The position numbers were made by a program, and so were the translations under genes. Under the pieces are notes generated by a model. It was not told where the DNA came from and ran no database searches. It saw only the letters and a program-made list of their open reading frames with translations. Below are positions 10,885 through 54,783 of a stretch of 64,000 nt of DNA, in pieces. The DNA lies in the IMG/VR virus record IMGVR_UViG_2627853969_000002; one strand, given 5' to 3'. Each line of letters opens with the position of its first letter. The first letter of the stretch is position 1. Source of the DNA: an uncultured virus (IMG/VR IMGVR_UViG_2627853969_000002) (taxonomy: Duplodnaviria > Heunggongvirae > Uroviricota > Caudoviricetes).

Positions 10885-10981
10885 TAATCTAATCTTCCTA
10901 AGTTTCCTTATCGCGTGCTTCATGCGCCGCTAGATCTAGAAAAGTGGACAGGCAGTCGATGCAAGAATGCGTAGAGATCAA

Positions 10982-20707: not shown

Positions 20708-21075
20708 CGCAGCTCCTCGAAACTGGCCATGAGCTGACGCTGGGCGTACCAGTCGACCATCAAGCGATTGCGTTGGAACCACATCAGGGTCAACCGCGGT
20801 GGCTGCTTGCCCGCCATGCACTGCTCCACGATGTCAGGGGCCAGCAGCGTCATGCGCAGCGATTCGTTGACCACTGATTGGTCCAGGTCTTCGGCGCGCG
20901 CGATAGCCGATCCGCTCGGCATGGCCCCGATATCCAGCAGGTGCTGCCAGTAGAATGCACGCGCCAGCCCTTCTATCAGCGTGACGTCGTGGACACTGCC
21001 CTGCTCCGCCGCCGCGCGCTGGATACCACGGCGGCTAAATGTCAGCGGTACAAAGGTTTCCATCGATGCGTCCAT
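20704..21075 (-). CDS. recombinase-associated HTH protein
   Basis: LARAFYWQHLL...IARAE..LAPD; overlaps both neighbours. Confidence 0.75.
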   Translation of the reverse strand: MDASMETFVPLTFSRRGIQRAAAEQGSVHDVTLIEGLARAFYWQHLLDIGAMPSGSAIARAEDLDQSVVNESLRMTLLAPDIVEQCMAGKQPPRLTLMWFQRNRLMVDWYAQRQLMASFEELR

Positions 21076-22463
21076 CAAGCCTCGACCTCCAGCAATTCGG
21101 CACCGATGCTGTTGGGTGCAAACTCCTCGATCAACGCACTCCAGCCAATCTCCCGCCACCTCACCTTGATCCCGCGCACCTCGCCGGCATGGACGAGGTC
21201 GATGCGCTCGATCATCAAATTGGCGATACGGTGGCGTTCGACCGGGAACAGTTGATCCCACACCTCGTTGAGCTGCTTCATCGCCATCACGGTGGTGGGC
21301 TCGTCGATCTGGGCACCGGTGTGTTGGATGTGCCGCACTACCGCTGCCACCGACTCCGGGCTGGCCAGCACCGTGCGGATCTGGGCCACCACCGCCGCCT
21401 CAATCTCCGGCGCAGGCAGGCGCTCGCAGCTTTTGCCCGACGCGCCGAACCGTAATTCGGACTTGGACAAGTAGTAGTGGTATTTACGCCCCTGCTTGCA
21501 CGAGTAGGTCGGATACATCCGCTCCCCGGAGGGCGCATACAGCAGGCCGCGTAGCAACGCATCAGTGCGTGACCGGGTCTTGGTCTCCACGGCTCGGCGA
21601 TGCCCGTCCTTGGCCAGCACCTCATGGACCCGCCCCCACAACCCTGGATCGATGATGGCGTCATGCACACCGGTGTACCAACTGCCCTTGTGTGACAACT
21701 CGCCGAGGTAGATGCGGTTGCGCAGCAGTTTGTGCAGGTATTTCTTGTCGATGCGTGCGCCTACCCGCTCCTGCCCCTCTTGCGTCTTCCACGCCTTGGT
21801 GGTGATGCCCTCCTCGGCCAGGTTGGCGGCGATCTGGGTGGGTGAGCCGATGGTCAGCATCTGCGCGAAGATCCGGCGCACCACGGCGGCCTCGGTTTCG
21901 TTGATCACAAGCTTGCGGTGCTCGACGTCGTAACCCAAGGGCGGCACGCCGCCCATCCACATCCCCTTGCGCTTGGAGGCAGCGATCTTGTCGCGGATAC
22001 GCTCGCCGGTGACCTCGCGCTCGAACTGGGCGAAGGACAGCAGGACGTTGAGCATCAGCCGTCCCATCGAGGTGGTCGTATTGAACTGCTGCGTGACCGA
22101 CACGAAGGACACGCCGTGGCGCTCGAACACCTCGACCATCTTGGAGAAGTCGGCCAGGCTGCGCGTCAAACGATCGATCTTGTAGACCACCACAATGTCG
22201 ATCTGACCACGCTCAATGTCGGCTATCAGACGCTTCAGACCCGGTCGATCTGTGTTCCCACCGGAAAACCCAGGATCGTCGTAGTCGTCGGCCACCCGCA
22301 TCCATCCCTCGGCGCGCTGGCTGACCACATAGGCGTGGCCAGCCTCCTTCTGCGCATCGATGGAGTTGAACTCCTGATCCAGACGCTCGTCCGACGAGAC
22401 CCGGCAGTAGACGGCACAACGTTTGCGCGCTTTGGTGGAAGCCATCTGCGTGAGATCGTTCAT
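21075..22463 (-). CDS. large serine recombinase (integrase)
   Basis: YCRVSS catalytic Ser, DRLTRS, FAQFERE, GGVPPLGY recombinase domain. Confidence 0.95.
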   Translation of the reverse strand: MNDLTQMASTKARKRCAVYCRVSSDERLDQEFNSIDAQKEAGHAYVVSQRAEGWMRVADDYDDPGFSGGNTDRPGLKRLIADIERGQIDIVVVYKIDRLTRSLADFSKMVEVFERHGVSFVSVTQQFNTTTSMGRLMLNVLLSFAQFEREVTGERIRDKIAASKRKGMWMGGVPPLGYDVEHRKLVINETEAAVVRRIFAQMLTIGSPTQIAANLAEEGITTKAWKTQEGQERVGARIDKKYLHKLLRNRIYLGELSHKGSWYTGVHDAIIDPGLWGRVHEVLAKDGHRRAVETKTRSRTDALLRGLLYAPSGERMYPTYSCKQGRKYHYYLSKSELRFGASGKSCERLPAPEIEAAVVAQIRTVLASPESVAAVVRHIQHTGAQIDEPTTVMAMKQLNEVWDQLFPVERHRIANLMIERIDLVHAGEVRGIKVRWREIGWSALIEEFAPNSIGAELLEVEA

Positions 22464-22912
22464 CGTGCACCGCCTTTGCCTTTCAGGCCAAAGAACAGCG
22501 GGCCAGACCAATGCGTGCCAGTGATGCGACGGGCAACGGCCGTCAGGCTCTTGAACGTGCTGCCCTCGTACTCGAACAGGCCCTGTGCCGTGACCCGGAC
22601 CGTGTGTTCCCGCTCCCCCCATTCGCGCAGCAACACCGTGCCAGGCGCAAAGGTGATCTCCTCTGCTCGTGCCCGCAGCTTGATCTTGGAGTGCTTGGCA
22701 CCGATGGCCTCCAGGCGCTGGCGCGTGGTGTGGGATAGACCGCCAAAGGCGTGTTCCTGGATCTTGTAGGCGATGCGCGATTCAATGAAGCCACGGTTGG
22801 GGTAACCGGGACGGCTGGTGAAATAGCGATCCCACACCGACCAAAGATCGGCGATAGGCAGACTGGACAGCGCGGCGATCTGGGCAGCGACAGAGGCGTG
22901 TTGGTCGTTCAT
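22460..22912 (-). CDS. DUF2924-like protein
   Basis: PGTVLLREW...FKSLTAVARRITGTHWSGPLFFGL, upstream of the LSR. Confidence 0.85.
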   Translation of the reverse strand: MNDQHASVAAQIAALSSLPIADLWSVWDRYFTSRPGYPNRGFIESRIAYKIQEHAFGGLSHTTRQRLEAIGAKHSKIKLRARAEEITFAPGTVLLREWGEREHTVRVTAQGLFEYEGSTFKSLTAVARRITGTHWSGPLFFGLKGKGGAR

Positions 22913-23100
22913 GAAAACTCCTGCGGATAGGGAGTTGTATAGACGCTCTGGTCGGGCACAAAGCCAAGTCCACTCTCGGCACTGGGTCGCACTTCCGGAC
23001 ACAAAGTACGGACGATTGCCGCTGCAAGGATGGTGGTGATCTCCTGAGCACGCGCGCTGGCGCTCAGCGTCGCAGCAGGTGCAAGTTCGAGGTGCTTCAT
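22909..23100 (-). CDS. small hypothetical protein
   Basis: RBS GGAG; coupled to DUF2924; MKHLELAP start also present in copy A near 2328. Confidence 0.55.
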   Translation of the reverse strand: MKHLELAPAATLSASARAQEITTILAAAIVRTLCPEVRPSAESGLGFVPDQSVYTTPYPQEFS

Positions 23101-23273
23101 GACGGCTCCGGGGAATAGCAACCGTCGAGGATGGTGCGCCCAAACTTCCGAAGTGGATGGCAACACAGGGTAATGCGGCATACTCGATGGCGCGCCTGCA
23201 AAGAGTTAACAACGGCTCAGGTGAGCGGTAGGATCATCTCCGCGTTAACCAAAAACGGAATTAGGTTATCGCC

Positions 23274-23552
23274 ATGACATTTGGCGCATTCATCCGCAAG
23301 AAGCGCAAGGAAAAAGGCATTCAAATGAATGACCTCGCGCGGCAACTTGCGATCTCTCCCGCTTACTGGTCGCGGATCGAACGCGACATGGAAAAGCCGC
23401 CCAAGGACGAACTGATCCAGAAGGCAGCGGACATCTTGGACTTGCACTCCGACGACGCCTTCGTGGAAGCCAGCCGTCTTCCGCCCGACATTCGCAACGA
23501 TGTGGGGAATCTGGTACGGATGTACCGCAAGCGCCGCAAAAAGGACCAGTAA
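23274..23552 (+). CDS. XRE-family HTH regulator
   Basis: Paralogue of 2515-2793. Confidence 0.9.
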   Translation: MTFGAFIRKKRKEKGIQMNDLARQLAISPAYWSRIERDMEKPPKDELIQKAADILDLHSDDAFVEASRLPPDIRNDVGNLVRMYRKRRKKDQ

Positions 23553-23675
23553 GTGTCGCCTGCTGCCGATACGCCAGGCCAAGCGCTGGCGCTGATCACT
23601 GTATCCGATGAACGCGGCTACCCGGTGCGGGTAGAGCGAGACGACTTTCTTCATCAGGAGGCCAGAATGCACTAA
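23553..23675 (+). CDS. 40-aa small ORF (GTG start)
   Basis: Paralogue of 2794-2916 with several synonymous changes. Confidence 0.5.
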   Translation: MSPAADTPGQALALITVSDERGYPVRVERDDFLHQEARMH

Positions 23676-23774
23676 CGCGGCGGCACCCCCGCTGCTGACT
23701 CCGCGCCGGCATTATTTTCACTTTCAAATTAACAGTTCGCGCAATCGTGTAATTTTCAGAAATGGACTTTACCC

Positions 23775-25196
23775 ATGTCAGTAGATCCCTCCATTGATGG
23801 ACAGCACCCCATCCCCCCTTCTGAGAACCAGCCTGCCAAGCAGGATCGCAAATGCCAATCGGATGATGCAGGTCCGCTCATCCTGCCGGACATGCAGCAC
23901 TTCGTTAGCTTATTGCGCAAGGTCAAGCATCCGCGCCAGGCATTACTGCTGATCGAGCGCGCCAGTGACTCCCCATTACCCGAAACGGCGACACTGATCG
24001 ACAGGGGGGCGCTATCGGTTGAATCGCGCAAGGCGATGTTCCATCGGGTCGCAACGCTCGAGGCCACGGTCCGGCGTCGCATCGAACACGCCGCCGAGCG
24101 CATCATGCTGCTGGACGATGAGTACGGCGCTCAAGCCGTCCAGTCGCTGCTCGACGAACACGGCGACGCTGAGGTCCTTGCCATGCCCAGCGACCGCCAC
24201 AGTCGCGCGCTGTACTTGTACCTGTTGCAGGACTTCCTGGCCAACGGAGCCAAGCCTGATCCACGCTTTGACCATGCCGAACGCTTGCAGGCAATGCACC
24301 GGCAATGGAAGAGCGACAACTACTCCAGCCACTACCTTGGCCCCAGGGGCGTCGTGCCGCAGATCGGCCCCGATGTCGAGGACGCCTTGCGCAGGCGCAT
24401 CACCGCGCTGTTCCCGCAGGTGCCGGTCGACCAGATCCTCATCGAGCAATTCACCCAGCGTGATCTTGCGCACGCCGCCCCCAGCAGCGGACAAGATGCA
24501 GATGACGCCGACTCGGTCCTCCTGCACACCCTCACCGCCACGTTCAATGGCACGACCACCCACTACCAGCAGGTCAAGAACGGCGAGGTGGAAGACCATG
24601 AAGTGCCCGTTGCGATGTCGGCCTGTTTTTCATGGGAGCCGCAGACCGGCGCACTCAGCGTGCATTGCGAGGACCGTGAAATTCGCCGCGAGTTAGCCAC
24701 TGTCTTCCGCGATGTTGCGCTCGCCTGCAATGACGGCATTGCCGACATCCCCCTGCGCAAATTCGACATCTTTGGCTTTTCCACGCCCGAGATGCTCGCG
24801 CGCTTGGAACACGAGCGTGTGGCCGGAGTGGAAAAAATCACGATCCTCCAACTCAAGGTCGAGCACCTGTTCGAGCAGATGACGTCCGACGAAGCCAACG
24901 AACGCGACATCGTGCAGCACCTGTCCAGCACACTGCTCATCGGTCGGGATCGGCGCGACACCCGTAACATTTATGAGGTCGCCAACGACGACTACGGCAT
25001 TGACGATCTGACCAGGTACACCGTGACACAAGTCAAACTCGTGTTTCGGATGGCTAAACAGCCGCACCGCAAGGCGCATCACCTCGCCGTCCAGATCACC
25101 GCACCGAACGGTCTGAACGACAAGAGCAAGACCGAGGATGACCGCAAGCGCGTCCTGCAGCAGCTTGCTCGCATCGGCGTGCTTCGCGAGGGTTGA
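23775..25196 (+). CDS. prophage hypothetical protein (473 aa)
   Basis: Paralogue of 3016-4443. Confidence 0.85.
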   Translation: MSVDPSIDGQHPIPPSENQPAKQDRKCQSDDAGPLILPDMQHFVSLLRKVKHPRQALLLIERASDSPLPETATLIDRGALSVESRKAMFHRVATLEATVRRRIEHAAERIMLLDDEYGAQAVQSLLDEHGDAEVLAMPSDRHSRALYLYLLQDFLANGAKPDPRFDHAERLQAMHRQWKSDNYSSHYLGPRGVVPQIGPDVEDALRRRITALFPQVPVDQILIEQFTQRDLAHAAPSSGQDADDADSVLLHTLTATFNGTTTHYQQVKNGEVEDHEVPVAMSACFSWEPQTGALSVHCEDREIRRELATVFRDVALACNDGIADIPLRKFDIFGFSTPEMLARLEHERVAGVEKITILQLKVEHLFEQMTSDEANERDIVQHLSSTLLIGRDRRDTRNIYEVANDDYGIDDLTRYTVTQVKLVFRMAKQPHRKAHHLAVQITAPNGLNDKSKTEDDRKRVLQQLARIGVLREG

Positions 25197-25209
25197 AGGG
25201 ACGCAGGGG

Positions 25210-26145
25210 ATGTCAGCTTACTTGGAGTTTTTCAACACCCTGGATCGGCTGCAACGACTTGACGCACCCGTGATGGCCAAGACGCTCGGTCGATCCAGCG
25301 CCGATTTTTTGCATCGGCGCTGGATCACCGAGAGCGGATACCTCACCCACGTGATGGTGCCGTTCCTCGACTCGCAACAAGAGGTCCAGGTCCAAGCCGA
25401 CCCGGATGCGGCGGTCTACCGGTATCGCAGCCCACAGCAGCGCGGCAGGACGATCACCAGACCCTTGACGGAGATCGCGCTGTACACGCTGCGGTTGGAC
25501 GTATGGCTAGACGATATGGCCTGGTTGATCGGCATCGAGGAACGTCAGCGCTCCACTCACCGTGTCAGCGTGCCCGATCACCTGTGGCATCTGGGCGATG
25601 CACGGATCATGGGCACCGACGATTTCGCACCGGTGTTCGTGGCACGGGCTTTCCAGCGCGCGCCGAAAATCGAGATGGCAACGGCACTGGCCGATGCCAT
25701 CTGGCCACGCAGTGGCGTCCTATTGGCACCGCCGCCCTCGCTGACTGCCGTGCTACCACGTGACCACGCCATGCGGTCTCTCGACGAATTCGTTCGCGTG
25801 GACGAAGGCAGGGACGTCTTCGATACGAGCGCCTTCGACCGCGTCTTGCGTGGTCATCTCGCGTGCGCCGGGGTAACGGAACCGGAGCAGTTCTTACAAG
25901 GCCAACGCCTGAAGCTTCCCCACTTCGTGACCTCGCGTGAATTGTCGCGGGAACGCGCCAAGATCATCAAACACATGTGGGGGACCAACGGCCAGGCCGC
26001 TCCCGAGATGTCCTGGGCGCAGGTCAACCGTATCGCCAACACCGGCTACCAGTCCTTCGATGATGCCTTCGGTGGCAAGGCCATGCGCGAGGACGTGCTC
26101 TGGCTGGTCAAGCGCGGCAAATACCGGCTGCGGCGCAAACCATAA
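25210..26145 (+). CDS. prophage hypothetical protein, possible C-terminal wHTH
   Basis: Paralogue of 4457-5392. Confidence 0.8.
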   Translation: MSAYLEFFNTLDRLQRLDAPVMAKTLGRSSADFLHRRWITESGYLTHVMVPFLDSQQEVQVQADPDAAVYRYRSPQQRGRTITRPLTEIALYTLRLDVWLDDMAWLIGIEERQRSTHRVSVPDHLWHLGDARIMGTDDFAPVFVARAFQRAPKIEMATALADAIWPRSGVLLAPPPSLTAVLPRDHAMRSLDEFVRVDEGRDVFDTSAFDRVLRGHLACAGVTEPEQFLQGQRLKLPHFVTSRELSRERAKIIKHMWGTNGQAAPEMSWAQVNRIANTGYQSFDDAFGGKAMREDVLWLVKRGKYRLRRKP

Positions 26146-26454
26146 ACGCGCCCATAAATCGCGCCATACCTGAACCATCCAACCGTCGTCCCTCGGTGAT
26201 GCCTTCGGTGACAAGGCAGAGCGTGAGGGCTTGCCCTGGCTGTTCAAGCGCAGCAGATACCGGCTGCTGCGCAAAAACCATAAATCCGACCATAAATCGA
26301 ACCATACATGAACCATCCACCAGTCCCTCGGTGATGCCTTCGGTGACAAGGCAGAGCGTGAGGGCGTGCCCTGGCTGATCAAGCGCGGCAGATACCGGTT
26401 ACGGCACAAAAACCATAAATCCGACCATAAATCCGACCATACACGAACCATAAA
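26048..26454 (+). repeat. three tandem ~135-bp units with CCATAAA mini-repeats
   Basis: Units start at about 26048, 26185 and 26319. Confidence 0.85.
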
Positions 26455-26503
26455 TTCGTGTGGAAACTTCGCTGCGCCCATTTCACCCAAGAGGCGCATC
26501 GAC

Positions 26504-26767
26504 ATGCCAACCCGACTTCCCGCCACACAAATCGCTCAACTTTGTGAAAGCAAAGATCCCGGTAGCACCACCCGCATCGCCCTTGACGAGAGCGAACTGG
26601 CCGCGCGCTGGGGACTCTCCGTCAAGACCCTGCGCCGCTGGCGCCAGGAGCAACTCGGCCCGGTCTTCTGCAAGCTCGGAGCGCGCGTCACCTACCTGAT
26701 CTGCGACATCGAAGCCTTCGAGCAACGCGTCTCGCGCTACTCGACCTTCGCTCGGGCATATCCGTGA
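26504..26767 (+). CDS. MerR/AlpA-like HTH (excisionase-like)
   Basis: Paralogue of 5613-5876. Confidence 0.85.
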   Translation: MPTRLPATQIAQLCESKDPGSTTRIALDESELAARWGLSVKTLRRWRQEQLGPVFCKLGARVTYLICDIEAFEQRVSRYSTFARAYP

Positions 26768-26886
26768 GCAAGACGGCGATGCGCGACCAGACACCGGCAT
26801 CGCCGCGATGTGCGTTCGGTACCGCACACCCCCTGGACCCTGACACGCCGTCCCTTTCCCATCCCTTCGATTCGGAGCTAACACGC

Positions 26887-27162
26887 ATGAGCCTGATCAC
26901 ATCACTGCGTCAGAAGCTGTTTTACGTCTACGGCGAACATCTGCCTGAGGAAATCCACTATCACCGGGCAGATGGGCAACACGTCGTTGTCGCACTCCAA
27001 GACGCCACGGTCGACGAACTGGCCTTCGCCATCCAGACCATCAACACCGAGTCTGTGGCACTGAGCCGCCATCGCAACGCGTTGGAAGAACTCCACACCG
27101 AGGTACGCAAACGCGCCGCGTGTGGGGCGGACCGCATCGCCGACGTTGCATGGGATAGCTGA
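26887..27162 (+). CDS. prophage hypothetical protein
   Basis: Paralogue of 5995-6270. Confidence 0.75.
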   Translation: MSLITSLRQKLFYVYGEHLPEEIHYHRADGQHVVVALQDATVDELAFAIQTINTESVALSRHRNALEELHTEVRKRAACGADRIADVAWDS

Positions 27163-27164
27163 AC

Positions 27165-27416
27165 ATGACCCACCCCCATCCCGTCGAGAGCATCGAACCC
27201 ATGGTCGATGCCAAATACGCGGCGGCGGCATTGCGCCTGCCCTACTACTGGTTCTCTGACCAGGCGATGCGCAACAAATACCGGATTCCGCACTATCTGC
27301 TGGGAGGGCTGGTGCGCTACCGCCTCTCAGAACTGTCCGCATGGGCTGCACGCAACACGCTCGTCCAGCGTGGTGACACGCCGAACGTTGGTGACGCAAC
27401 CGAGGGAGCCGAATGA
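27165..27416 (+). CDS. small HTH-like prophage protein
   Basis: IPHYLLGGLVRYRLSEL excisionase-like wing; overlaps the primase start. Confidence 0.75.
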   Translation: MTHPHPVESIEPMVDAKYAAAALRLPYYWFSDQAMRNKYRIPHYLLGGLVRYRLSELSAWAARNTLVQRGDTPNVGDATEGAE

Positions 27417-29677
27417 TGGACTCCAACAAACATCGCAGCAACATCGAACGCCTCGAAATCCGCACAAGCCTGATCGCACGCCTGGAGTCCGTGTTGGCCA
27501 CCATGTTTCCATCGGGCAGCAAGCGCGGTGCAAAGTTCTTCATCGGCGACACGCTGGGCAACGCAGGCGACAGTCTCGAGGTGGTCCTGGCAGGAGACAA
27601 GGCGGGCCTGTGGATTGATCGTGCCACTGGCGAGGGTGGCGATCTCTTTGATCTGATCGCCGCCCACCTTGGTACCGACGTGCATACCGACTTCCCGAAG
27701 GTGCTGGATGAGGCCGCCGATCTACTCGGCCGCGTCCGTTCGGCGCCGGTGCGCAAGGCCAGCAGGCCAGTACCCGTGGCCGATCTCGGCCCCGCTACCG
27801 GCAAGTGGAACTACCTCGATGCCGACGGCAAGTTGATCGCCATCGTCTACCGCTACGACCCGCACGGGCGCAAGAAGCAATACAGGCCGTGGGATGCCAA
27901 GCGCGGCAAGATGACCCCACCCGACCCGCGCCCCCTGTACAACCAGCCGGGATTGGTGACGGCCAGCCAGGTCGTGCTGGTCGAAGGCGAAAAATGCGCG
28001 CAAGCCTTGATCGCCATCGGCGTTGTGGCGACCACCGCCATGAACGGTGCCAACGCCCCGATCAACAAGACCGACTGGTCGCCATTGGCGGGGAAGTCGG
28101 TGCTGATCTGGCCTGACCGCGACAAGCCGGGCTGGGACTACGCGACGCAGGCGGCGCAAGCCATTCTGTCGGCGGGAGCAACCTCCTGCCACATCCTCTA
28201 CCCGCCCGAGAATGCCGTGGCGGGCTGGGATGCGGCTGACGCGGTGGCTGAGGGTTTCGACATCGTCTCCTTCCTGGCACACGGTCCGCGCCTGCAGATG
28301 CACGCCATCGATGATGATGCCGCGCCTGTGGTCAGCAACGATGAATCGGTCTCAGGCACCGAGGATGCGCTGGCGCTGGCCTTTACCCGCCGCTACCACC
28401 GCGATTGGCGCTACGTCGCCATCTGGGGCCGCTGGCTGGTGTGGGACGGACAACGCTGGCGCACCGAGGATACGCTGGCAGCGACCGACCTGATCCGCAG
28501 CGTCTGCCGCCATGCGGCGGTCCACGCCGACAACGCAAAAATCGCCACCAAACTCGCCAGTGCCGGCACGGTCAGCGGTGTCGAACGGCTGGCGCGCGCT
28601 GATCGCCGGCATGCCGCCACCACCTCCGAATGGGACGCCGATCCATGGCTGCTCAATACGCCCGGCGGCGTGGTTGATCTCAGGACAGGCCGACGGCGCA
28701 CGCACGAACGCGCCGACCGGATGACCAAGATCACCACGGCCACGCCTGGCGATGGCTGCCCAATCTGGCAGAAGTTCCTCGCCGAGGTCACCGGCCAGGA
28801 CAACGAACTGCAAGCCTACCTGCAACGGATGGTCGGCTATGCACTCACCGGCTCCACGCAGGAACACGCGCTGTTCTTCCTGTACGGCACCGGTGCGAAC
28901 GGCAAATCGGTGTTCGTCAACACACTGGCCACCATCTTCGGCGACTACGCGGCCAACGCGCCGATGGACACGTTCATGGAGACACGCACCGACCGGCACC
29001 CGACCGACATGGCGGGACTGCGCGGTTCGCGCTTCGTGGCGGCCATCGAAACCGAACAGGGACGCCGCTGGGCCGAGTCGAAGCTGAAAAACCTCACCGG
29101 CGGCGACAAAATCTCCGCACGCTTCATGCGTCAGGACTTCTTTGAGTTCTTCCCACAGTTCAAGCTGTTCGTTGCCGGCAACCACAGGCCCGCCATCCGC
29201 AACATCGATGAAGCAATGAAGCGTCGGCTGCACCTGATCCCGTTCACGATCACCGTGCCAGCCGAGCGCCGCGACAAACATCTCCAAGAAAAGCTGTTGA
29301 ACGAACGCGACGGCATCCTCGGCTGGGCTGTCCAGGGATGCCTGCACTGGCAACGCCTCGGACGCCTCTCGCCACCGCAACAAGTCCTCCAAGCCACCGA
29401 GGAGTATTTCGAGGCCGAGGACGCGCTTGGCCGATGGATCAACGAACGCTGCGTGCGCCATGCCAATGCCAAGTCGCTCACTGCCGAGTTATTCAACGAC
29501 TGGAAGTTGTGGGCCGACGACGCAGGCGAGTTCATCGGCTCGCAGAAGCGCTTCGCTGATCTACTCCTGAACCGTGGTCTGGAGAAGTGGCGCAACTCGA
29601 CGGGCCTGCGTGGCTTCCGTGGCGTGGGTCTCAGGCACCTGCACACCCTCGCTGACACAGCCTACGACAACGGCTGA
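27413..29677 (+). CDS. TOPRIM primase / D5-like SF3 helicase (P4-family)
   Basis: VLVEGEK and WPDRD (TOPRIM); YGTGANGKS; LTGGDKISARFM. Confidence 0.93.
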   Translation: MMDSNKHRSNIERLEIRTSLIARLESVLATMFPSGSKRGAKFFIGDTLGNAGDSLEVVLAGDKAGLWIDRATGEGGDLFDLIAAHLGTDVHTDFPKVLDEAADLLGRVRSAPVRKASRPVPVADLGPATGKWNYLDADGKLIAIVYRYDPHGRKKQYRPWDAKRGKMTPPDPRPLYNQPGLVTASQVVLVEGEKCAQALIAIGVVATTAMNGANAPINKTDWSPLAGKSVLIWPDRDKPGWDYATQAAQAILSAGATSCHILYPPENAVAGWDAADAVAEGFDIVSFLAHGPRLQMHAIDDDAAPVVSNDESVSGTEDALALAFTRRYHRDWRYVAIWGRWLVWDGQRWRTEDTLAATDLIRSVCRHAAVHADNAKIATKLASAGTVSGVERLARADRRHAATTSEWDADPWLLNTPGGVVDLRTGRRRTHERADRMTKITTATPGDGCPIWQKFLAEVTGQDNELQAYLQRMVGYALTGSTQEHALFFLYGTGANGKSVFVNTLATIFGDYAANAPMDTFMETRTDRHPTDMAGLRGSRFVAAIETEQGRRWAESKLKNLTGGDKISARFMRQDFFEFFPQFKLFVAGNHRPAIRNIDEAMKRRLHLIPFTITVPAERRDKHLQEKLLNERDGILGWAVQGCLHWQRLGRLSPPQQVLQATEEYFEAEDALGRWINERCVRHANAKSLTAELFNDWKLWADDAGEFIGSQKRFADLLLNRGLEKWRNSTGLRGFRGVGLRHLHTLADTAYDNG

Positions 29678-29818
29678 ATGCCATTACGACACATCCGACT
29701 GACGCATTTGACGCACTACATCGTAAGTCCTACGCGTGCGTACGCGCGCGCACCTCACGGGGAGTTTCGATGTGACCCGTCCAATCTGTCAGTCGCTCCC
29801 GACTTGGAGCATTTGACG

Positions 29819-30283
29819 ATGAACACGACGATCCTGACCCTGGACCTGGGTACTCACACCGGGTGGGCGCTGCAGCACCTGGACGGCACCATCAACAGCG
29901 GCACCGAACATTTCACCCCGCAGCGGTTCGAAGGCGGCGGCATGCGCTTCCTGCGCTTCAAGCGCTGGCTCAACGAAGTGCTCTCCACATGCAATCACAT
30001 CCACACCGTGTACTTCGAGGAGGTGCGCCGACATGCCGGCGTCGATGCCGCCCATGCCTATGGCGGCTTCATGGGGCATCTGACCGCATGGTGCGAGCAC
30101 CACCAGATCCCCTACCAGGGCGTACCGGTCGGCACGATCAAGAAGCACGCCACCGGCAAGGGCAACGCCAGCAAAGACGACATGATCGCCTCGGCTCGGC
30201 GACGTGGTCATACCCCCATCGATGACAACCAAGCCGATGCACTGGCCCTGCTGCACTGGGTCATCGAGACACAAGGAGTGTGA
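29819..30283 (+). CDS. RuvC-like Holliday junction resolvase
   Basis: ILTLDLGTHTGWA, YFEEV, KKHATGKGNASK, DDNQADA. Confidence 0.8.
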   Translation: MNTTILTLDLGTHTGWALQHLDGTINSGTEHFTPQRFEGGGMRFLRFKRWLNEVLSTCNHIHTVYFEEVRRHAGVDAAHAYGGFMGHLTAWCEHHQIPYQGVPVGTIKKHATGKGNASKDDMIASARRRGHTPIDDNQADALALLHWVIETQGV

Positions 30284-30287
30284 CGTC

Positions 30288-30491
30288 ATGAAAACCCCAA
30301 CCCCGACCTACCGCAGCCCGCTTGGACGTTTCCAGCCAGAGCGCGTGGATGTGGAGACGATCAAACGGCAAGGATGGCGCGACCAAGCCATCTTGGTCAT
30401 CAACGCGCAGGATGAGCGGCTGGATTTCATCGAACGGGAAATCGTGCAGCGCATCGGCGAGCGTCTGTATGGGAGCAAGCGCCATGGTTAA
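30288..30491 (+). CDS. prophage hypothetical protein
   Basis: Fills the operon between the resolvase and the next gene. Confidence 0.65.
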   Translation: MKTPTPTYRSPLGRFQPERVDVETIKRQGWRDQAILVINAQDERLDFIEREIVQRIGERLYGSKRHG

Positions 30492-30912
30492 CCGGCATGC
30501 TCCGTGGACGATCCAGGAGATTGCGCATCGCTTCGAAGAGGCCGCCTCGACGGGGCGTCGACTGCCTTGCGTTCGCACACCCGGCTACTTCAACGCCTGG
30601 CCACACATCCTGCGGCAGCAGTGGGAAGCTTTCGCCACAGAGGATCGACCCTATCGCCCCTTTCCACCGAGCCCGCAGGATATCGACCGCATGCTCGAGA
30701 CGATGCGATGGGTGTTGTGGCTGGAAGTGGAACAACGTCACCTGGTATGGATGCGCGCCAAGCGCTACGGCTGGCGGGACATCACGACCCGCTTCGCCTG
30801 TGATCGCACCACGGCATGGCGACGTTGGCACAAGGCACTGGAGATCGTCGCCGAACAACTCAACCGCGACGGGCTGCGGTTGACTTCCAAAAACGTGGGC
30901 AACCCAGGGTAA
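30484..30912 (+). CDS. DUF6362-like protein with C-terminal HTH (possible late regulator)
   Basis: LVWMRAKRYGWRDITTRFACDRTTAWRRW; last gene before the late region. Confidence 0.7.
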   Translation: MVNRHAPWTIQEIAHRFEEAASTGRRLPCVRTPGYFNAWPHILRQQWEAFATEDRPYRPFPPSPQDIDRMLETMRWVLWLEVEQRHLVWMRAKRYGWRDITTRFACDRTTAWRRWHKALEIVAEQLNRDGLRLTSKNVGNPG

Positions 30913-31071
30913 TGCTTGCGCTGATTGTCCACGCTTTGCCATGCATGTCTGTTTTGACGTCATCGGAGCGTGCAACAACACAGGCCGTCCGGGGGTAGTA
31001 TTTCCGCTACCTTCTGGACAGACCTGTCAGCCACGCCACCCGGCATGGCGATACGGCTGGCCAACACCATC

Positions 31072-31107
31072 AACCCGCGCATGAGGACGACTCATGGCGG
31101 GTTTTTT
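31072..31107 (+). terminator. terminator-like hairpin before the MTase (also near 53443-53478)
   Basis: AACCCGC..CATGAG-loop-CTCATG.GCGGGTT followed by a T-run. Confidence 0.5.
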
Positions 31108-31122
31108 CATTTTCAGGCACCG

Positions 31123-32379
31123 ATGAGCGCACTGCAGATCCACTACCGCCCAGTCGATTCGCTGATTCCCTATGCCCGCAATGCCAAGCAGCATTCGCAG
31201 GCCCAGGTCGCGCAGATCGCCGCCAGCATCCGCGAATTCGGCTGGGGTGCGCCGATCCTGATCGATGGCCAGAACAATGTGATCGCCGGACACGGTCGTC
31301 TGTTGGCGGCCCGTCAGTTGGGCATGGTCGAGGTGCCGGTCGTCCCGTTGGATCACCTGAGCGACACGCAACGCCGCGCGCTGATCCTGGCCGACAACAA
31401 GATCGGCGAGAACGCCGCATGGGATGACAACCTGCTCGGCATCGAATTGTCCGAATTGCAAGACGCCGGCTTCGATCTCGGCCTGACCGGCTTCTCCCCA
31501 GAAGAATGGGAAGCACTGATCGCCGGTGACGACACCACCAAGGACGGGCTCACCAACGAGGACAATGTGCCGGACGCGCCCGAAACTCCGATCTCCAAAG
31601 CAGGCGACGTGTGGCTGCTGGGCGACCACAGACTGCTGTGCGGCGACGCCACCAAGGCGGACGACTACACGCAGCTGCTCGGCGACGAATTGCCCGACAT
31701 GGCCTTCACCGATCCCCCGTACAACGTGAATTACGCCAACACCACCAAGGACAAGGCAAGCAACAAGAGCCGTGCGATCCTGAACGACAACTTGGGCGAA
31801 GGCTTTGGCGGTTTCCTGACCGAGGCATGCTTCAACATCCTGGCCTGCACCAAGGGCGCGGTCTACATCGCTATGAGTTCCAGCGAACTGGATACGCTGC
31901 AGTCGGCTTTCCGTGCCGCTGGCGGTCACTGGTCGACTTTCATCATCTGGGCCAAAAACACCTTCACGATGGGCCGTGCGGATTACCAGCGTCAGTACGA
32001 GCCGATCCTGTACGGCTGGCGCAAGGGCATCGATCATTTTTGGTGCGGTGCCCGCGATCAAGGCGACGTCTGGCAGATCAAGAAACCGCAAAAGAACGAT
32101 CTGCATCCGACCATGAAACCCGTCGAATTGGTCGAGCGTGCCGTGCGCAACAGCAGCAAGACCAAGGACATCGTCCTCGATCCCTTCGGTGGCTCCGGCT
32201 CCACGCTCATCGCCTGCGAAAAGTCCGACCGGCGCGCGCGCTTGATCGAACTTGATCCGAAGTATGTCGACGTGATCGTGCGCCGCTGGCAGGACTACAC
32301 CGGGCAAGCAGCAATACGTGCCAGCGATGGTGTGAAATTCGGTTCAACGCTGGAGGCCGAGCAGCCAGGGATGGTGTAA
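31123..32379 (+). CDS. ParB-N domain + N6/N4 DNA methyltransferase
   Basis: IAGHGRL (ParB); TDPPYN, HPTMKP, LDPFGGSGST (beta-class MTase). Confidence 0.93.
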   Translation: MSALQIHYRPVDSLIPYARNAKQHSQAQVAQIAASIREFGWGAPILIDGQNNVIAGHGRLLAARQLGMVEVPVVPLDHLSDTQRRALILADNKIGENAAWDDNLLGIELSELQDAGFDLGLTGFSPEEWEALIAGDDTTKDGLTNEDNVPDAPETPISKAGDVWLLGDHRLLCGDATKADDYTQLLGDELPDMAFTDPPYNVNYANTTKDKASNKSRAILNDNLGEGFGGFLTEACFNILACTKGAVYIAMSSSELDTLQSAFRAAGGHWSTFIIWAKNTFTMGRADYQRQYEPILYGWRKGIDHFWCGARDQGDVWQIKKPQKNDLHPTMKPVELVERAVRNSSKTKDIVLDPFGGSGSTLIACEKSDRRARLIELDPKYVDVIVRRWQDYTGQAAIRASDGVKFGSTLEAEQPGMV

Positions 32380-32450
32380 ATCCCACTGCCAACCGCGCGA
32401 GTGCGCGGTTGGACTTGTTCAATGAGGGCGTCTATCGCATTGGCGCTGAT

Positions 32451-32669
32451 TCACTCATCCTCCCACACGCATAACGCCTTGTAACCCTCGACGGTGATGA
32501 CCCAGTCCTTGCCGACTCTCGTGATCAGCTTGAGATTCCTGAGGTCCTTGATCATCTGCTCGGGCGAACCGCATCTGACGTTGTCGTGAATCCAAATGAT
32601 TTTGCCCCCGTTGTAATCATGGGCGATGGACAGGATGGCGAGCTGCTCTAGTGTGACGTGAACTTTCAT
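32451..32669 (-). CDS. 72-aa paralogue of the N-terminal domain of the DUF3489 protein
   Basis: AILSIAH..GKIIW..DN..WVITVEGYKAL vs AILAHAH..GKITW..DN..WIITAEGYKAL; RBS GAGG. Confidence 0.65.
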   Translation of the reverse strand: MKVHVTLEQLAILSIAHDYNGGKIIWIHDNVRCGSPEQMIKDLRNLKLITRVGKDWVITVEGYKALCVWEDE

Positions 32670-32830
32670 TTTAGTCGTCCTCGACGTGTTGGTTGGTGCT
32701 TGCATGTACGCTCTAATCACCTAAAAATCCAAGTGGTTTTTGCACATTTTCTGCTTATTTTTTGCTTTCTTCTCGAACAGGCTCCGATGCCCCGCGAAGC
32801 CTTAACGCCCTGCCGTTTTCACCCTCTTTT

Positions 32831-33301
32831 TCATTCGATTCGGTAAATACGCTCACCACCAGGCGCTTTATCCGAGATAATGCTCAAACCAAGCTTTTTC
32901 TTGAATGCGCCGGCAAACGTGCCGCGCACCGTATGTGATTGCCAGCCGGTTTTCTCGCAAATCTGCGCGATGGTGGCGCCTTCAGGGCGCTTGAGCATGG
33001 CGATCACCTGCGCCTGCTTGCTGTTCTCGCGAGTACGTGGCTTGGCTTGTGCGATGACGGCATCTATCTCTTTTTCGCTGATTGGCGCCTTGCGTGGCAA
33101 ACCCAACGCCTTGTAGCCCTCGGCGGTGATGATCCAGACGTTGCGGGCTTGCTTGATAAATGCGCGATTGAAGAGTGATTCGAGCACTTTTTTGCGCGCA
33201 CCACCGTTAAGATTGTCGGGAACCCAAGTGATCTTGCCCTCGGTGTGCTGATGGGCGTGGGCAAGGATGGCGTGCTGGGTTGGTGTGAGCTGGGTGGTCA
33301 T
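32831..33301 (-). CDS. DUF3489 family protein
   Basis: RENSKQAQVIAMLKRPEGATI...GWQSHTVRG. Confidence 0.88.
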   Translation of the reverse strand: MTTQLTPTQHAILAHAHQHTEGKITWVPDNLNGGARKKVLESLFNRAFIKQARNVWIITAEGYKALGLPRKAPISEKEIDAVIAQAKPRTRENSKQAQVIAMLKRPEGATIAQICEKTGWQSHTVRGTFAGAFKKKLGLSIISDKAPGGERIYRIE

Positions 33302-33408
33302 TTGAATCTACCTCGACGTGTTGGTTGGTGGTCGCATGAACGCTCCAATCAAGTAGAAAGCCAAGTAGTTTTTGCAGATTTTTTGCTTCTTTCTTAAACA
33401 GGCCCTCG

Positions 33409-33759
33409 ATGCCCCGCAAAGCCCCCACGCCCTGCCGCCACCCTGGTTGCGGCAAGCTGGTTTCGGATGGTTCTGGTTACTGCCCCGACCATCAACGTGA
33501 CAAGGTGGGATGGCACAAAGATCATCGCAATGCACATCAACGCGGCTACGGCGCGAAGTGGCAGAAACTGCGCGCCGTCGTCATGCACCGCGATCAAGGA
33601 CTGTGCCAACCATGCAAACAATCAGGACGCTTGACGCCGGCCGTGGCGGTGGACCACATCGTCCCAAAGTCACACGGTGGCACTGATCATCCAAACAACT
33701 GCCAGTCGATCTGCCATCGCTGTCACGTACTCAAGACGGCGCAGGAATCGCGTCAGTAA
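33409..33759 (+). CDS. phage HNH endonuclease (terminase cofactor, gp74-like)
   Basis: RGYGAKW, CQPC, VDHIVPK..GG, N..C..CH..KT. Confidence 0.92.
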   Translation: MPRKAPTPCRHPGCGKLVSDGSGYCPDHQRDKVGWHKDHRNAHQRGYGAKWQKLRAVVMHRDQGLCQPCKQSGRLTPAVAVDHIVPKSHGGTDHPNNCQSICHRCHVLKTAQESRQ

Positions 33760-33823
33760 CGCGAAGATGCTGGATGAAGACAATCTGGAAAGATGCACTA
33801 TGACAATGGTCATGGCATGCTCG

Positions 33824-33911
33824 ATTCACTGCCGTGTAGGCAGCTCAGAAAATGCAGCGCCAGGTACTGCGCGACATGGGCCGGTTCACTGCCGTGTAGG
33901 CAGCTCATGCA
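33824..33911 (+). CRISPR. type I-F mini-array: two 28-bp repeats and one 32-bp spacer, no cas genes in window
   Basis: R1 ATTCACTGCCGTGTAGGCAGCTCAGAAA (33824-33851); spacer ATGCAGCGCCAGGTACTGCGCGACATGGGCCG (33852-33883); R2 GTTCACTGCCGTGTAGGCAGCTCATGCA (33884-33911). Confidence 0.9.
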
Positions 33912-33940
33912 ATGTTCGGGGCATCAACCGGACTCGATGC

Positions 33941-34032
33941 TGGGTAGGGGGGTCAAATACTTGCGATGCAATCGCAAAAGACCGCTCGCCCCATCAATTT
34001 TTCGCGCGTGCAAAATGAAAAACTTTTTTTTA
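33941..34032 (+). other. putative cos packaging region
   Basis: GGGTAGGGGGGTCAAAT...GACCGCTCGCCCC...A/T tracts between HNH and terS, where HK97-like cos sites lie. Confidence 0.5.
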
Positions 34033-34171
34033 AACAGATCCGTGTCAGAGCTAAGCGTTGCAAGGGACTACAAGGCGAACTTGGTGCAGATCGGACAGAT
34101 CGATGTGACGCCATGGACTGCGGCAGCTCACGCGGGCATGACCCCAGCCAAACCTGTACAACTGGAACCCT

Positions 34172-34636
34172 ATGCGCGGCCGTAAACCTCTGCCTGTGGC
34201 AATCAAGAAGATCAAAGGTACGCTGCAAAAATGCCGAACCAACACGTATGAGCCCCGTCCCGAGGGTCAGTTGGGTGAACCCCCGGAGTACATGTCTGAC
34301 ATTGCCAAGGAGGCATGGATCTATGCGGTAGAGAACGCACCGCTGGGTTTGTTTTCTTCCCTTGATGCCACGGTACTGGAACGTTGGGCCAATTGCGCAG
34401 GTCTGTACCGCGAGGCGCTGGCCAAGATCAACCGATCTGGTGTCGCCGGCATGATCATCAAAACCCCCAGTGGCATCTTGCGGCGCTCCCCGCTAATGGA
34501 TGTGATCCGAGATCTCGCGTTGGAGATGAAGGGATACGAGTCGGAGATGGGGTTCACTCCTGCATCCCGATCACGCGTCCAGGTCGCGCAGGAGTCGGTC
34601 GATAAGCACGACCCCTGGGCGGACATAGCCGGGTAG
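34172..34636 (+). CDS. terS: terminase small subunit (P27 family)
   Basis: MRGRKPLP..K..KG; EMGFTPASRSR. Confidence 0.9.
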   Translation: MRGRKPLPVAIKKIKGTLQKCRTNTYEPRPEGQLGEPPEYMSDIAKEAWIYAVENAPLGLFSSLDATVLERWANCAGLYREALAKINRSGVAGMIIKTPSGILRRSPLMDVIRDLALEMKGYESEMGFTPASRSRVQVAQESVDKHDPWADIAG

Positions 34637-34787
34637 GTAACGCGATTACCACCACACCCACTACACCACGCTGAGCTACGCCATGTGCAGCCGAGCAGCG
34701 TACGCGTCGGTCAAGCGAGCGCAGCCGTCCTCCTTGCCATTTGGCCGGCCTTGCGTTTGTCCTTCAATCGGTAGCTCTCGCTGCTAA

Positions 34788-50538: not shown

Positions 50539-50801
50539 NNNNNNNNNNNNNNNNNNNNNNNNNNNNNNNNNNNNNNNNNNNNNNNNNNNNNNNNNNNNNN
50601 NNNNNNNNNNNNNNNNNNNNNNNNNNNNNNNNNNNNNNGGTTCTCTGACCAGGCGATGCGCAACAAATACCGGATTCCGCACTACCTGCTCGGGGGGCTG
50701 GTGCGCTACCGGCTATCGGAACTGTCCGTATGGGCCGCACGCAGCACGCTCGTCCAACGCGGTGACACGCCGAACGTCGGTACTTCGACCGAGGGAGCCA
50801 A

Positions 50802-53066
50802 ATGATGGACTCCAACAAACCTCATAGGGACATCGAACGCGTCGAAATCCGCACCAGCCTGATCGCGCGCCTGGAATCCGTGTTGACCACCGTGTTTCCA
50901 GCAGGCAAGAAGCGCGGCACGACGTTCTTCATCGGCGACACGCGGGGCAATGCCGGCGACAGTCTCGAAGTGGTGCTGGCAGGAGAAAAGGCGGGCCTGT
51001 GGATTGATCGTGCCACTGGCGAGGGCGGGGATTTGTTCGATCTGATCGCCGCCCACCTTGGCGCCGATACTCATACCGACTTCCCCAGGGTGCTCAATGA
51101 GGCCGCCGATCTGCTCGGTCGCGTCCGTTCGGCGCCGGTGCGCAAGGCCCGCAGGCAAGCGTCCGTGGCCGATCTCGGCCCCGCCACCGCGAAGTGGAAC
51201 TACCTCGATGCCGACGGCAAATTGATCGCCATCGTCTACCGCTACGACCCGCACGGGCGCAAGAAGCAGTACCGGCCGTGGGATGCCAAGCGCGGCAAGA
51301 TGACCCCACCCGACCCTCGCCCCCTGTACAACCAGCCGGGGTTGGTGACGGCCAGCCAGGTCGTGCTGGTCGAAGGCGAAAAGTGCGCGCAGGCGTTGAT
51401 CGCCAGCGGCGTTGTGGCGACCACCGCCATGAACGGTGCCAACGCCCCGATCAACAAGACCGATTGGTCGCCATTGGCGGGTAAGTCGGTGCTGATCTGG
51501 CCTGACCGCGACAAGCCGGGCTGGGACTACGCGACGCAGGCCGCGCAAGCCATTCTGTCGGCGGGGGCGACCTCCTGCCACATCCTCTACCCGCCCGAGA
51601 ATGCCGTGGCGGGCTGGGATGCGGCAGACGCCGTGGCCGAGGGGTTCGACATCGTCTCCTTCCTCACGCACGGTCCGCGCCTGCAGATGCACGCCATCGA
51701 TGATGATGCCGCGCCAGTGGTCAGCAACGATGAATCGGTGGCGGGCACCGAGGATGCGTTGGCGCTGGCCTTTACCCGCCGCTACCACCGCGATTGGCGC
51801 TACGTCGCCACCTGGGGCCGGTGGCTGGTGTGGGACGGACAACGCTGGCGCACCGAGGATACGTTGGCAGCAACCGACCTGATCCGCAGCGTCTGCCGCC
51901 ATGCGGCGGTCCACGCCGACAACGCAAAAATCGCCACCAAACTCGCCAGTGCCGGCACGGTCAGCGGTGTCGAACGGCTGGCGCGCGCTGATCGCCGGCA
52001 TGCCGCCACCACCGCCGAATGGGACGCGGACCCGTGGCTGCTCAATACGCCCGGCGGCGTGGTTGATCTCAGGACAGGCCGACGGCGCACGCACGAACGT
52101 GCCGACCGGATCACCAAGATCACCACGGCCACGCCGAGCGATGGCTGCCCGATCTGGCAGAGGTTCCTCGCCGAGATAACAGACCAGGACAACGAACTGC
52201 AAGCCTATCTGCAACGGATGGTCGGCTATGCACTCACCGGCTCCACGCAGGAACACGCGCTGTTCTTCCTGTACGGCACCGGTGCGAACGGGAAATCGGT
52301 ATTCGTCAACACACTGGTCACCATCTTCGGCGACTACGCAGCCAACGCGCCGATGGACACGTTCATGGAGACACGCGCCGACCGGCACCCGACCGACATG
52401 GCGGGACTGCGTGGTTCGCGCTTCGTGGCGGCCATCGAAACCGAACAGGGGCGACGATGGGCCGAGTCGAAGCTGAAAAACCTCACCGGCGGCGACAAAA
52501 TTTCCGCACGCTTCATGCGTCAGGACTTCTTCGAGTTCTTCCCACAGTTCAAGCTTTTCGTCGCAGGCAACCACAGGCCCGCCATCCGCAACATCGATGA
52601 GGCAATGAAACGGCGGCTACACCTGATCCCGTTCACGATCACCGTGCCACCCGAGCGCCGCGACAAACATCTCCAGGAAAAGCTGTTGAACGAGCGCGAC
52701 GGCATCCTTGCCTGGGCCGTCCAAGGATGCCTGTACTGGCAACGCCTCGGACGGCTTGCGCCACCGCAGCAAGTTCTGCAAGCCACCGAGGAGTACTTCG
52801 AGGCAGAGGACGCGCTTGGCCGATGGATCGGCGAACGCTGCGTGCGCCATGTCAATGCCAAGTCGCTCACTGCCGAGTTATTCAACGACTGGAAGTTGTG
52901 GGCCGACGACGCAGGTGAATTCATCGGCTCGCAGAAGCGCTTCGCTGATCTGCTCCTGACCCGTGGTCTGGAGAAGTGGCGCAACTCGACGGGCCTGCGT
53001 GGCTTCCGTGGCGTGGGTCTCAAGCACCTGCACACGCGCGCTGACACCGCCTCCGACAACGACTGA
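50802..53066 (+). CDS. TOPRIM primase / D5-like helicase
   Basis: Paralogue of 27413-29677. Confidence 0.93.
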   Translation: MMDSNKPHRDIERVEIRTSLIARLESVLTTVFPAGKKRGTTFFIGDTRGNAGDSLEVVLAGEKAGLWIDRATGEGGDLFDLIAAHLGADTHTDFPRVLNEAADLLGRVRSAPVRKARRQASVADLGPATAKWNYLDADGKLIAIVYRYDPHGRKKQYRPWDAKRGKMTPPDPRPLYNQPGLVTASQVVLVEGEKCAQALIASGVVATTAMNGANAPINKTDWSPLAGKSVLIWPDRDKPGWDYATQAAQAILSAGATSCHILYPPENAVAGWDAADAVAEGFDIVSFLTHGPRLQMHAIDDDAAPVVSNDESVAGTEDALALAFTRRYHRDWRYVATWGRWLVWDGQRWRTEDTLAATDLIRSVCRHAAVHADNAKIATKLASAGTVSGVERLARADRRHAATTAEWDADPWLLNTPGGVVDLRTGRRRTHERADRITKITTATPSDGCPIWQRFLAEITDQDNELQAYLQRMVGYALTGSTQEHALFFLYGTGANGKSVFVNTLVTIFGDYAANAPMDTFMETRADRHPTDMAGLRGSRFVAAIETEQGRRWAESKLKNLTGGDKISARFMRQDFFEFFPQFKLFVAGNHRPAIRNIDEAMKRRLHLIPFTITVPPERRDKHLQEKLLNERDGILAWAVQGCLYWQRLGRLAPPQQVLQATEEYFEAEDALGRWIGERCVRHVNAKSLTAELFNDWKLWADDAGEFIGSQKRFADLLLTRGLEKWRNSTGLRGFRGVGLKHLHTRADTASDND

Positions 53067-53210
53067 ATGCCATTGCGACACATCCGACTGACGCATTTGA
53101 CGCACTACACCGTAAGTCCTACGCGCGCGTACGCGCGCACACACCTCATGAGGGAGTTTCGATGTGACCCGTCCAATCTGTCAGTCCCTCCCGACTTGGA
53201 GCACTTGACG

Positions 53211-54683: not shown

Positions 54684-54783
54684 NNNNNNNNNNNNNNNNN
54701 NNNNNNNNNNNNNNNNNNNNNNNNNNNNNNNNNNNNNNNNNNNNNNNNNNNNNNNNNNNNNNNNNNNNNNNNNNNNNNNNNNN

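Follow-up and report, generated by a model that had tools for sequence, protein, structure and literature searches.

A cas-less type I-F CRISPR mini-array on phage-derived DNA and its sibling arrays at the HNH-terS site of prophages in the Xanthomonas albilineans group

Detailed analysis of a 64,000-nt stretch of viral DNA (IMG/VR record IMGVR_UViG_2627853969_000002; hereafter the window, meaning this stretch at its full length) revealed a real, canonical type I-F CRISPR array, devoid of cas genes, on phage-derived DNA. Comparison with homologous loci identified such arrays as a trait of a family of HK97-like prophages in the Xanthomonas albilineans group, with a fixed site between an HNH endonuclease gene and terS. 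We consider it probable that the window copy is an orphan I-F mini-array yielding a host-processed crRNA, likely with a spacer of ParA/RepA origin, that excludes a competing mobile element, and that its repeat-spacer units arrive by recombination.

Structure of the array and its carrier element

The array consists of two 28-nt repeats on the plus strand, R1 (33824-33851, ATTCACTGCCGTGTAGGCAGCTCAGAAA) and the terminal repeat R2 (33884-33911, GTTCACTGCCGTGTAGGCAGCTCATGCA), separated by a single plus-strand spacer of exactly 32 nt (33852-33883), with a start-to-start repeat spacing of 60 nt. R1 has an A at position 1 and is otherwise equal to the host consensus, whereas R2 follows this consensus over its first 24 nt and has the 3' end TGCA. 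An earlier note on this DNA had described two 28-nt repeats around 32 nt between HNH and terS, with no cas gene in the window, and had restricted the differences between the repeats to base 1 and the last four bases; the sequence agrees on both counts. The 23-nt repeat core occurs twice in the 64-kb window, compared with no match in 100 dinucleotide-preserving shuffles. In the Rfam search, the repeat was assigned to the I-F class (28 nt, with a 5-bp stem and a 5-nt loop). R1 scored 40.1 bits against CRISPR-DR4 (RF01317), above the gathering score of 35, and R2 scored 29.4 bits (E 1.5e-4), falling below the gathering score because of its altered 3' end; RF01317 was the sole Rfam family to pass its gathering score across the 64-kb window. 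The R1 hairpin is present and the R2 hairpin absent in the minimum-energy fold, and the stability of the folded pre-crRNA is at the level of shuffled sequences (z 0.17), as expected for two short hairpins. The Pfam scan of 64 ORFs in the window detected no Cas family, and Pfam, PHROGs and NCBIfam, libraries that may lack the family in question, returned no Acr family for the window.

The upstream neighbour of the array is the HNH endonuclease gene (33409..33759, plus strand; PF01844, E 1.8e-13; phrog_144, E 8.1e-36), and the downstream neighbour is a terS of the P27 family (34172..34636, plus strand; PF05119, E 4.1e-18; phrog_83), with a score of 46.4 bits against TIGR01558 (P27 family; cut-off 45.6). 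The 64-nt stretch from the HNH stop codon to R1 (33760..33823, plus strand) is conserved among siblings and, when seven siblings and the host leader were set side by side, proved unlike the AT-rich leader of the host array; the promoter scan found no consensus sigma-70 promoter in it. Beyond R2 lies a conserved trailer of approximately 110 nt (33912..34022, plus strand), common to all siblings, which may hold a decayed old repeat, packaging signals, or both. A degenerate repeat-like piece inside this trailer (33930-33962), with 61% identity to the repeat unit and located 48 nt past the start of R2, is kept in all siblings and lacks a hairpin; it may be what is left of an earlier terminal repeat whose spacer became shorter. 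Since no reading frame is open through all sibling arrays, the array is not a coding repeat. The ORF spanning it (33793-34185) was rejected as spurious, as it matches no family and stop codons interrupt all six frames in three of the six sibling arrays checked.

According to Pfam and PHROGs assignments, HNH, array and terS are embedded in a phage replication and packaging module, element B. Its genes are listed in the order serine integrase (21075-22622, minus strand), AlpA-like HTH gene, D5_N primase (27413-29677), RuvC-like gene, ParB-methylase (30970-32379) and two phrog_10315/DUF3489 genes, followed by HNH, the array and terS. Homology of element B to complete sibling phages ends at about 34672-34693, just past terS, and no terL, portal, capsid or other virion genes follow terS in this element within the window. 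The designation "prophage B" used in the earlier note is therefore accurate as far as phage-derived DNA is concerned, but not for a whole prophage. To the right of element B we found a stretch 82.5% like window positions 1851-2204, a haemagglutinin-repeat fragment, RHS genes and IS elements, toxin-gene fragments also being present past terS; the same right junction recurs in IMG/VR 2514752017_000003, with 96.8% identity downstream. Element B (21075-34700) is either a prophage that was truncated or a satellite-like element of 13.7 kb with replication genes, HNH and terS retained, and because it is defective, any benefit of the array goes to the cell and not to the phage. In size and gene set, it is as close to a phage satellite as to a prophage that has been cut short.

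Sibling arrays and spacer renewal at the HNH-terS site

Eight distinct arrays were found at the HNH-terS site, that of the window with one spacer and those of seven sibling loci with two to six spacers (up to seven repeats) each. The order of elements in the family is fixed, namely HNH, the conserved stretch of ~64 nt, the array, the conserved trailer of ~110 nt and terS. The siblings are harboured by Xanthomonas albilineans CFBP2523 on contigs C29 (six spacers) and C4 (two spacers, three repeats), by Xanthomonas sp. GPE 39 (four spacers; the same array as in IMG/VR 2636415431_000001), by the IMG/VR records 2514752017_000003 and 2514752017_000004 (two spacers each) and 2627853881_000004 (five spacers, preceded by a degenerate R1 and an insert of 250 nt, in a tandemly duplicated unit), and by the metagenome phage Ga0207791_1000056, whose three-spacer array is also present on a 1.2-kb bioreactor contig. 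The tandem unit of 2627853881_000004 measures 929 nt and comprises the 3' end of HNH, a broken-stem R1, the 250-nt insert and the five-spacer array. The flanks of the window array are 88-91% identical to those of its siblings. In the CFBP2523 C4 and GPE 39 siblings, terS is followed by terL and virion genes; in a 42.5-kb metagenome contig, it runs on into terL-like sequence; and in the CFBP2523 C29 sibling, IS3-family transposase genes lie directly past terS. Among 101 related genomes, HNH with its upstream DNA was found in two, CFBP2523 (two loci) and GPE 39.

Across these eight homologous loci the repeats are constant and the spacers vary. The spacer turnover that the earlier note had proposed for related HNH-terS regions is complete across the family, with 24 unique spacers and a single one common to two arrays, the trailer-end spacer of CFBP2523 C29 and IMG/VR 2514752017_000003, whose other spacers differ. 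The existence of an array family with the same site and different spacers effectively rules out a chance occurrence as well as a chimera formed with a host array. In a post-hoc comparison, the first base was A or T in 22 of the 24 unique phage-array spacers and in 138 of 211 host-array spacers. A 10-repeat array on IMG/VR 2911352100_000004 was set aside, having an AT-rich leader of host type and no HNH-terS context; it probably belongs to the host and was included in a provirus call.

A second array is very probably concealed in the window itself. Prophage A, which starts at about 50.6 kb and carries terL, portal, protease, capsid and tail genes, is interrupted by a 100-N scaffold gap (54684..54783) at the site expected to hold HNH, array and terS, with a ParB-methylase gene before the gap and terL after it. 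Positions 1-369 of CFBP2523 contig C4 are 100% identical to window 54315-54683 and positions 3259-12000 are 98.98% identical to window 54784-63525, while the intervening ~2.9 kb (C4:370-3258) contain two DUF3489-like genes, HNH, the three-repeat, two-spacer I-F array and terS. The suggestion of the earlier note that the equivalent region of copy A falls in this gap is borne out by this near-identical prophage. Paralogous copies of the HNH-array-terS module probably broke the assembly at this point. By the same kind of comparison, a third array-bearing element may lie just upstream of the window, as C29:8088-10291 is 100% identical to window 1-2204 and is situated ~5 kb downstream of the unit composed of HNH, the six-spacer array and terS, which is followed by IS3-type transposase genes.

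Early and replication modules occur in the window in three related copies with 90-93% identity (2307-6447 and 23077-27339; 27250-29936 and 50639-53328; 31059-32313 and 53429-54683). These repeated modules may correspond to the 5-kb gene cluster described in PMC3542200 as present 12 times in X. albilineans and flanked by phage, IS, virD4 and Rhs sequences. Beside the phage modules (7695-19847 and 35656-49578), the window encodes a BglII-type restriction endonuclease, relaxase/helicase-like and VirD4 proteins, a lipase-domain protein that also has an XVIPCD (T4SS effector-type) domain, haemagglutinin-repeat fragments, a large RHS cluster and IS elements.

The edge repeats of the family differ from the internal ones in a consistent manner. 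R1 begins with A in all eight arrays, where the host has G, and the last repeat ends with TGCA, AGCA or AGTA; among 18 internal repeats none has A at base 1, and 16 are identical to the host cas-linked consensus. Lineage variants of R1 and of the last repeat were never propagated inward; among them are a C at the third base of R1 in GPE 39, a C at base 14 in the first and last repeats of the metagenome phage, and a CA loop, seen in three of the last repeats. In the usual course of integration the repeat next to the leader is duplicated, so that R1 variants would be expected to spread. The lack of the R1 A in internal repeats argues against acquisition at the leader end and for import by recombination, and the overall pattern suggests block import by recombination with canonical arrays, or ectopic integration, as the better fit. 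In a small sample of six genomes, none of 22 phage-array spacers was found among 219 host-array spacers, which counts against import from current hosts. One internal repeat of the cas-linked host array of CFBP2523 begins with A, like the phage R1, as a result of either a point mutation or an exchange with a phage array. A more daring and rather doubtful extension is that the edge repeats provide a spacer-capture cassette with its homology arms: whole repeat-spacer blocks would be swapped with host or sibling arrays, and the array would not grow through duplication of R1 by Cas1-Cas2/3. If this were true, phages and their satellite-like derivatives would ferry ready-made immune memory between strains, beside the packaging site.

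Host I-F system, predicted crRNA and spacer origin

Among the genomes compared, that of CFBP2523 is nearest to the window, with 30% of the window's sampled words in common and 98.98-100% identity along prophage A, and by this similarity the window bacterium appears to be Xanthomonas albilineans-like. In CFBP2523, cas1, csy3 and cas6f adjoin a 33-repeat array with the repeat GTTCACTGCCGTGTAGGCAGCTCAGAAA. R1 and R2 are identical to the consensus of this cas-linked array at 27 and 25 of 28 positions, respectively, and the parts of both predicted to remain in the mature crRNA are identical to the host repeat. Cas6f is encoded in five of 22 Xanthomonas species genomes, including both carriers, CFBP2523 and GPE 39. 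The I-F system that the earlier note assumed for the host was found as a full locus, with an identical repeat, in the nearest genomes, and the array probably borrows host Cas proteins. A short I-F array without phage linkage is located next to a purD-like gene at a chromosomal site in both CFBP2523 (C4:94934-95100) and GPE 39 (C1:389973-390237); its first repeat is truncated in the former and altered in the latter, and its last repeat is degenerate. Decayed orphan I-F repeats were also observed in two Cas6f-negative Xanthomonas species genomes, four degenerate copies in one, and one full and one partial copy in the other.

In I-F systems, Cas6f cuts after the hairpin, leaving 8 nt of the upstream repeat as a 5' handle and 20 nt of the downstream repeat as a 3' hairpin. 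The product predicted for the window array is composed of the 8-nt handle CUCAGAAA from R1, the 32-nt spacer and the 20-nt hairpin GUUCACUGCCGUGUAGGCAG from R2, amounting to 60 nt. Both the deviant A of R1 and the TGCA end of R2 lie outside this product, and the claim that a canonical 60-nt crRNA is preserved despite the altered repeat edges holds on sequence, as the handle of R1 and the 20 nt at the start of R2 conform to the canonical sequence. In the proposed mechanism, the region would be transcribed in the lysogen, as RNA contigs of related strains suggest, and host Cas6f, to judge from the canonical repeat sequence, would cut after the CUGCC-loop-GGCAG hairpin of both repeats. The output would be one 60-nt crRNA, indistinguishable from host crRNAs, which would load the host Csy complex and, together with Cas2-3, be aimed at DNA with a matching protospacer beside a CC PAM.

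RNA contigs from runs X11 and X13, both of other strains, contain a repeat, a sibling spacer (that of IMG/VR 2514752017_000004), a second repeat and the trailer. The depth of these array contigs is 154 in X11 and 17.5 in X13, against 4.9 and 2.6 for the HNH contigs, and in run X1 a 999-nt RNA contig passes through HNH and the array; such contigs show neither the ends, the strand nor the true level of a transcript, and RNA libraries can contain DNA. Processing of short arrays in this species has been reported in PMC10810201, according to which four of the five I-F1 arrays in X. albilineans CFBP7063 have two spacers. Arrays 2, 3 and 6 are described there as normally processed, with the 8-nt handle in 2 and 3, and arrays 1 and 5 as giving atypical products (PMC10810201). 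For spacer 1 of array 2, a mean of 30,020 reads is given, and its match in a resident prophage has one mismatch and is flanked by TCC (PMC10810201). The array numbers of CFBP7063 are not mapped onto HNH-terS loci, and these printed processing data are not tied to the locus type of the window. The species is also reported to possess AcrIF that blocks DNA degradation (PMC10810201), which could blunt cleavage.

The origin of the window spacer was sought in several collections. Against phage records nothing convincing was obtained (best 25/28 nt, E 0.08), and the search of 101 related genomes with up to three mismatches gave no matches, as did those of IMG/VR and of JGI metagenomes with any base allowed at every sixth position (0 and 0). 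Among plasmids, only distant repA/parA look-alikes were recovered, and the best of 30 Xanthomonas parA-like loci matched at 22 of 32 positions. The best database matches were to repA/parA genes of alphaproteobacterial plasmids (28/30 nt, antisense). The reverse complement of the spacer translates as AHVAQYLALH, a ParA/RepA-type motif, which aligns with SAHLAQYLALHGY just past the Walker A motif of plasmid RepA. From this resemblance we infer that the spacer most likely derives from the partition ATPase (ParA/RepA-type) gene of an unsampled plasmid or phage-plasmid; with such a plasmid partition-gene origin, the benefit of the array would be to keep a competing mobile element out of the lysogen. 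Inter-phage competition, one of the roles raised in the earlier note, stays a conjecture, as none of these searches gave a protospacer.

Sibling spacers gave a similar result. No protospacer was found for the six-spacer array in 22 Xanthomonas genomes and phage records, for the five-spacer array in phage records, or for single sibling spacers and merged overlapping patterns in CFBP2523, GPE 39, three provirus records, IMG/VR and 151 family genomes. Sets of 55 and later 241 spacers, the latter comprising 22 phage-array and 219 host or other chromosomal-array spacers, had no protospacer in any of the compared loci, and on the window, sibling prophages and proviruses none of the 241 matched at 22 or more positions. 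Two spacer pairs from different arrays overlap on opposite strands, the first at 25 of 27 positions (27-nt alignments with two mismatches) and the second at 24 of 25 (by-eye reading of the printed spacers). In addition, phage-array spacers have 11-13-nt words in common with three host-array spacers, for which a rough estimate puts the chance expectation far below one. The spacers of this family behave like real immune spacers, and several of them aim at common targets.

Alternative explanations and relation to known systems

Several other readings of the window array were weighed against that of an active guide. It is unlikely, in our view, that the array is an inert fossil, once functional on an active phage and now a fitness-neutral passenger on a decayed element. 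Such a fate would accord with the toxin-gene fragments, RHS genes and IS elements that take the place of terL and virion genes after terS in element B, with the IS3-family transposase genes interrupting the CFBP2523 C29 sibling right past terS, with the missing target and with the decayed orphan I-F repeats of Cas6f-negative Xanthomonas species. However, those stretches of the repeats that matter for processing are intact next to flanks with only 88-91% identity to the siblings, sibling arrays are present in RNA contigs, and abundant crRNAs are listed for short arrays of the species in Table S5 of PMC10810201. Quite improbable is a guide that only binds, where a resident Acr blocks degradation by Cas2-3 and not Csy binding, and the crRNA represses transcription of its target. 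Acr proteins blocking degradation have been reported, and targeted prophage genes had lower expression (mean 23 vs 268 TPM) in Table S6 of PMC10810201; against this, the window has neither an Acr recognised by Pfam, PHROGs or NCBIfam nor a spacer target among the records searched.

Still less probable is an RNA anti-CRISPR, acting either as a Racr-like decoy for Cas6f/Cas7f or, in the manner of a Cracr, as a guide silencing the host cas operon or a toxin linked to CRISPR, even though a cas-less repeat unit on phage DNA is what would be seen and I-F examples have been described (PMC10651486; 10.1101/2024.10.29.618823). The window array has two repeats and a canonical 32-nt spacer, whereas the I-F Cracr spacers of the latter source are described as shorter, and spacers vary over the eight sibling arrays, whereas regulatory guides are conserved. 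The decoy proposed in the earlier note is contradicted by these features, the array being no solitary repeat and its full-length spacer being variable between siblings. The note's gene-repressing guide likewise found no support as a cas silencer: 22 spacers compared with the 12-kb I-F cas locus of CFBP2523, used as a stand-in for that of the host, gave no CC-flanked seed match beyond those of shuffled sequences, and the best CC-flanked seed run of the window spacer was 7, a length reached by 96 of 200 shuffles. An assembly artefact, whether through fusion of a host-array fragment to phage DNA or through collapse of a longer array, is barely credible. The assembly behind the window is a draft joined by scaffolding, in which 100 Ns stand at the paralogous site, and no sequencing run searched contained more than 0.10 of the window's words, so that the case rests on comparison; nevertheless, the family-specific edges (the A of R1, the TGCA end, the upstream stretch and the trailer) recur in seven independent siblings from other assemblies, and a 28-nt repeat is shorter than the usual assembly words. 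The orphan mini-array with a host-processed crRNA remains the reading that we prefer.

As such, the array exemplifies a strategy already known from phages; it does not constitute a new system. Virus-borne mini-arrays reportedly go back to original surveys of 2019 and to experiments with the archaeal viruses SPV1 and SPV2. Prophages of Clostridioides difficile have type I-B arrays that need the chromosomal cas genes and differ between related prophages; the window array resembles them in its location inside phage-derived DNA, its reliance on chromosomal cas genes and its variation between relatives, and differs in subtype, host and array position, the C. difficile arrays also being longer. PMC11656645 presents, as an established class, virus-borne mini-arrays that have the same repeats as the host and exploit its Cas proteins. 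Like these, the window array is a cas-less unit on viral DNA, of the one- or two-spacer kind, with host-identical repeats and presumed use of host Cas; unlike them, as the class is partly defined in PMC11656645 by targets in related viruses, it has no target found, leaves the sibling prophages unmatched and carries a plasmid-partition-like spacer, while its siblings reach six spacers and the window copy sits on a defective element. With RacrIF1 and other solitary repeat units (PMC10651486) it shares an I-F repeat on prophage DNA lacking cas genes, but Racrs are characterized there as inhibitors made of single repeat units with no canonical spacer, in contrast to two repeats around a variable 32-nt spacer. 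Viral Cracrs (10.1101/2024.10.29.618823) are also small phage array-like units that load host Cas, with I-F examples; their spacers are described as conserved, shorter and partly complementary to cas-locus promoters, and no such complementarity was found here.

The closest parallel in host and repeat type is provided by the short I-F1 arrays of CFBP7063 (PMC10810201), from the same species group, with two spacers and located away from the cas genes, some of them processed with the 8-nt handle and some with spacers against a resident prophage. The short I-F1 arrays of X. albilineans have been counted, and some shown to be processed, in that work (PMC10810201). In the parts of PMC10810201, PMC3542200 and 10.1101/731166 that could be consulted, we found no statement placing the short I-F arrays of the species in prophages at the HNH-terS site, although one may be in print.

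If our interpretation is correct, several co-resident phage-derived elements would each feed their own set of guides to the host I-F machinery, and part of the CRISPR specificity of the cell would be mobile, travelling with its prophages. The array-bearing site also explains the breaks of draft assemblies at this position in X. albilineans. The family forms a clean natural series, with one fixed locus, one to six spacers and marked edge repeats, and offers a basis for studying spacer renewal in arrays that lack cas genes.
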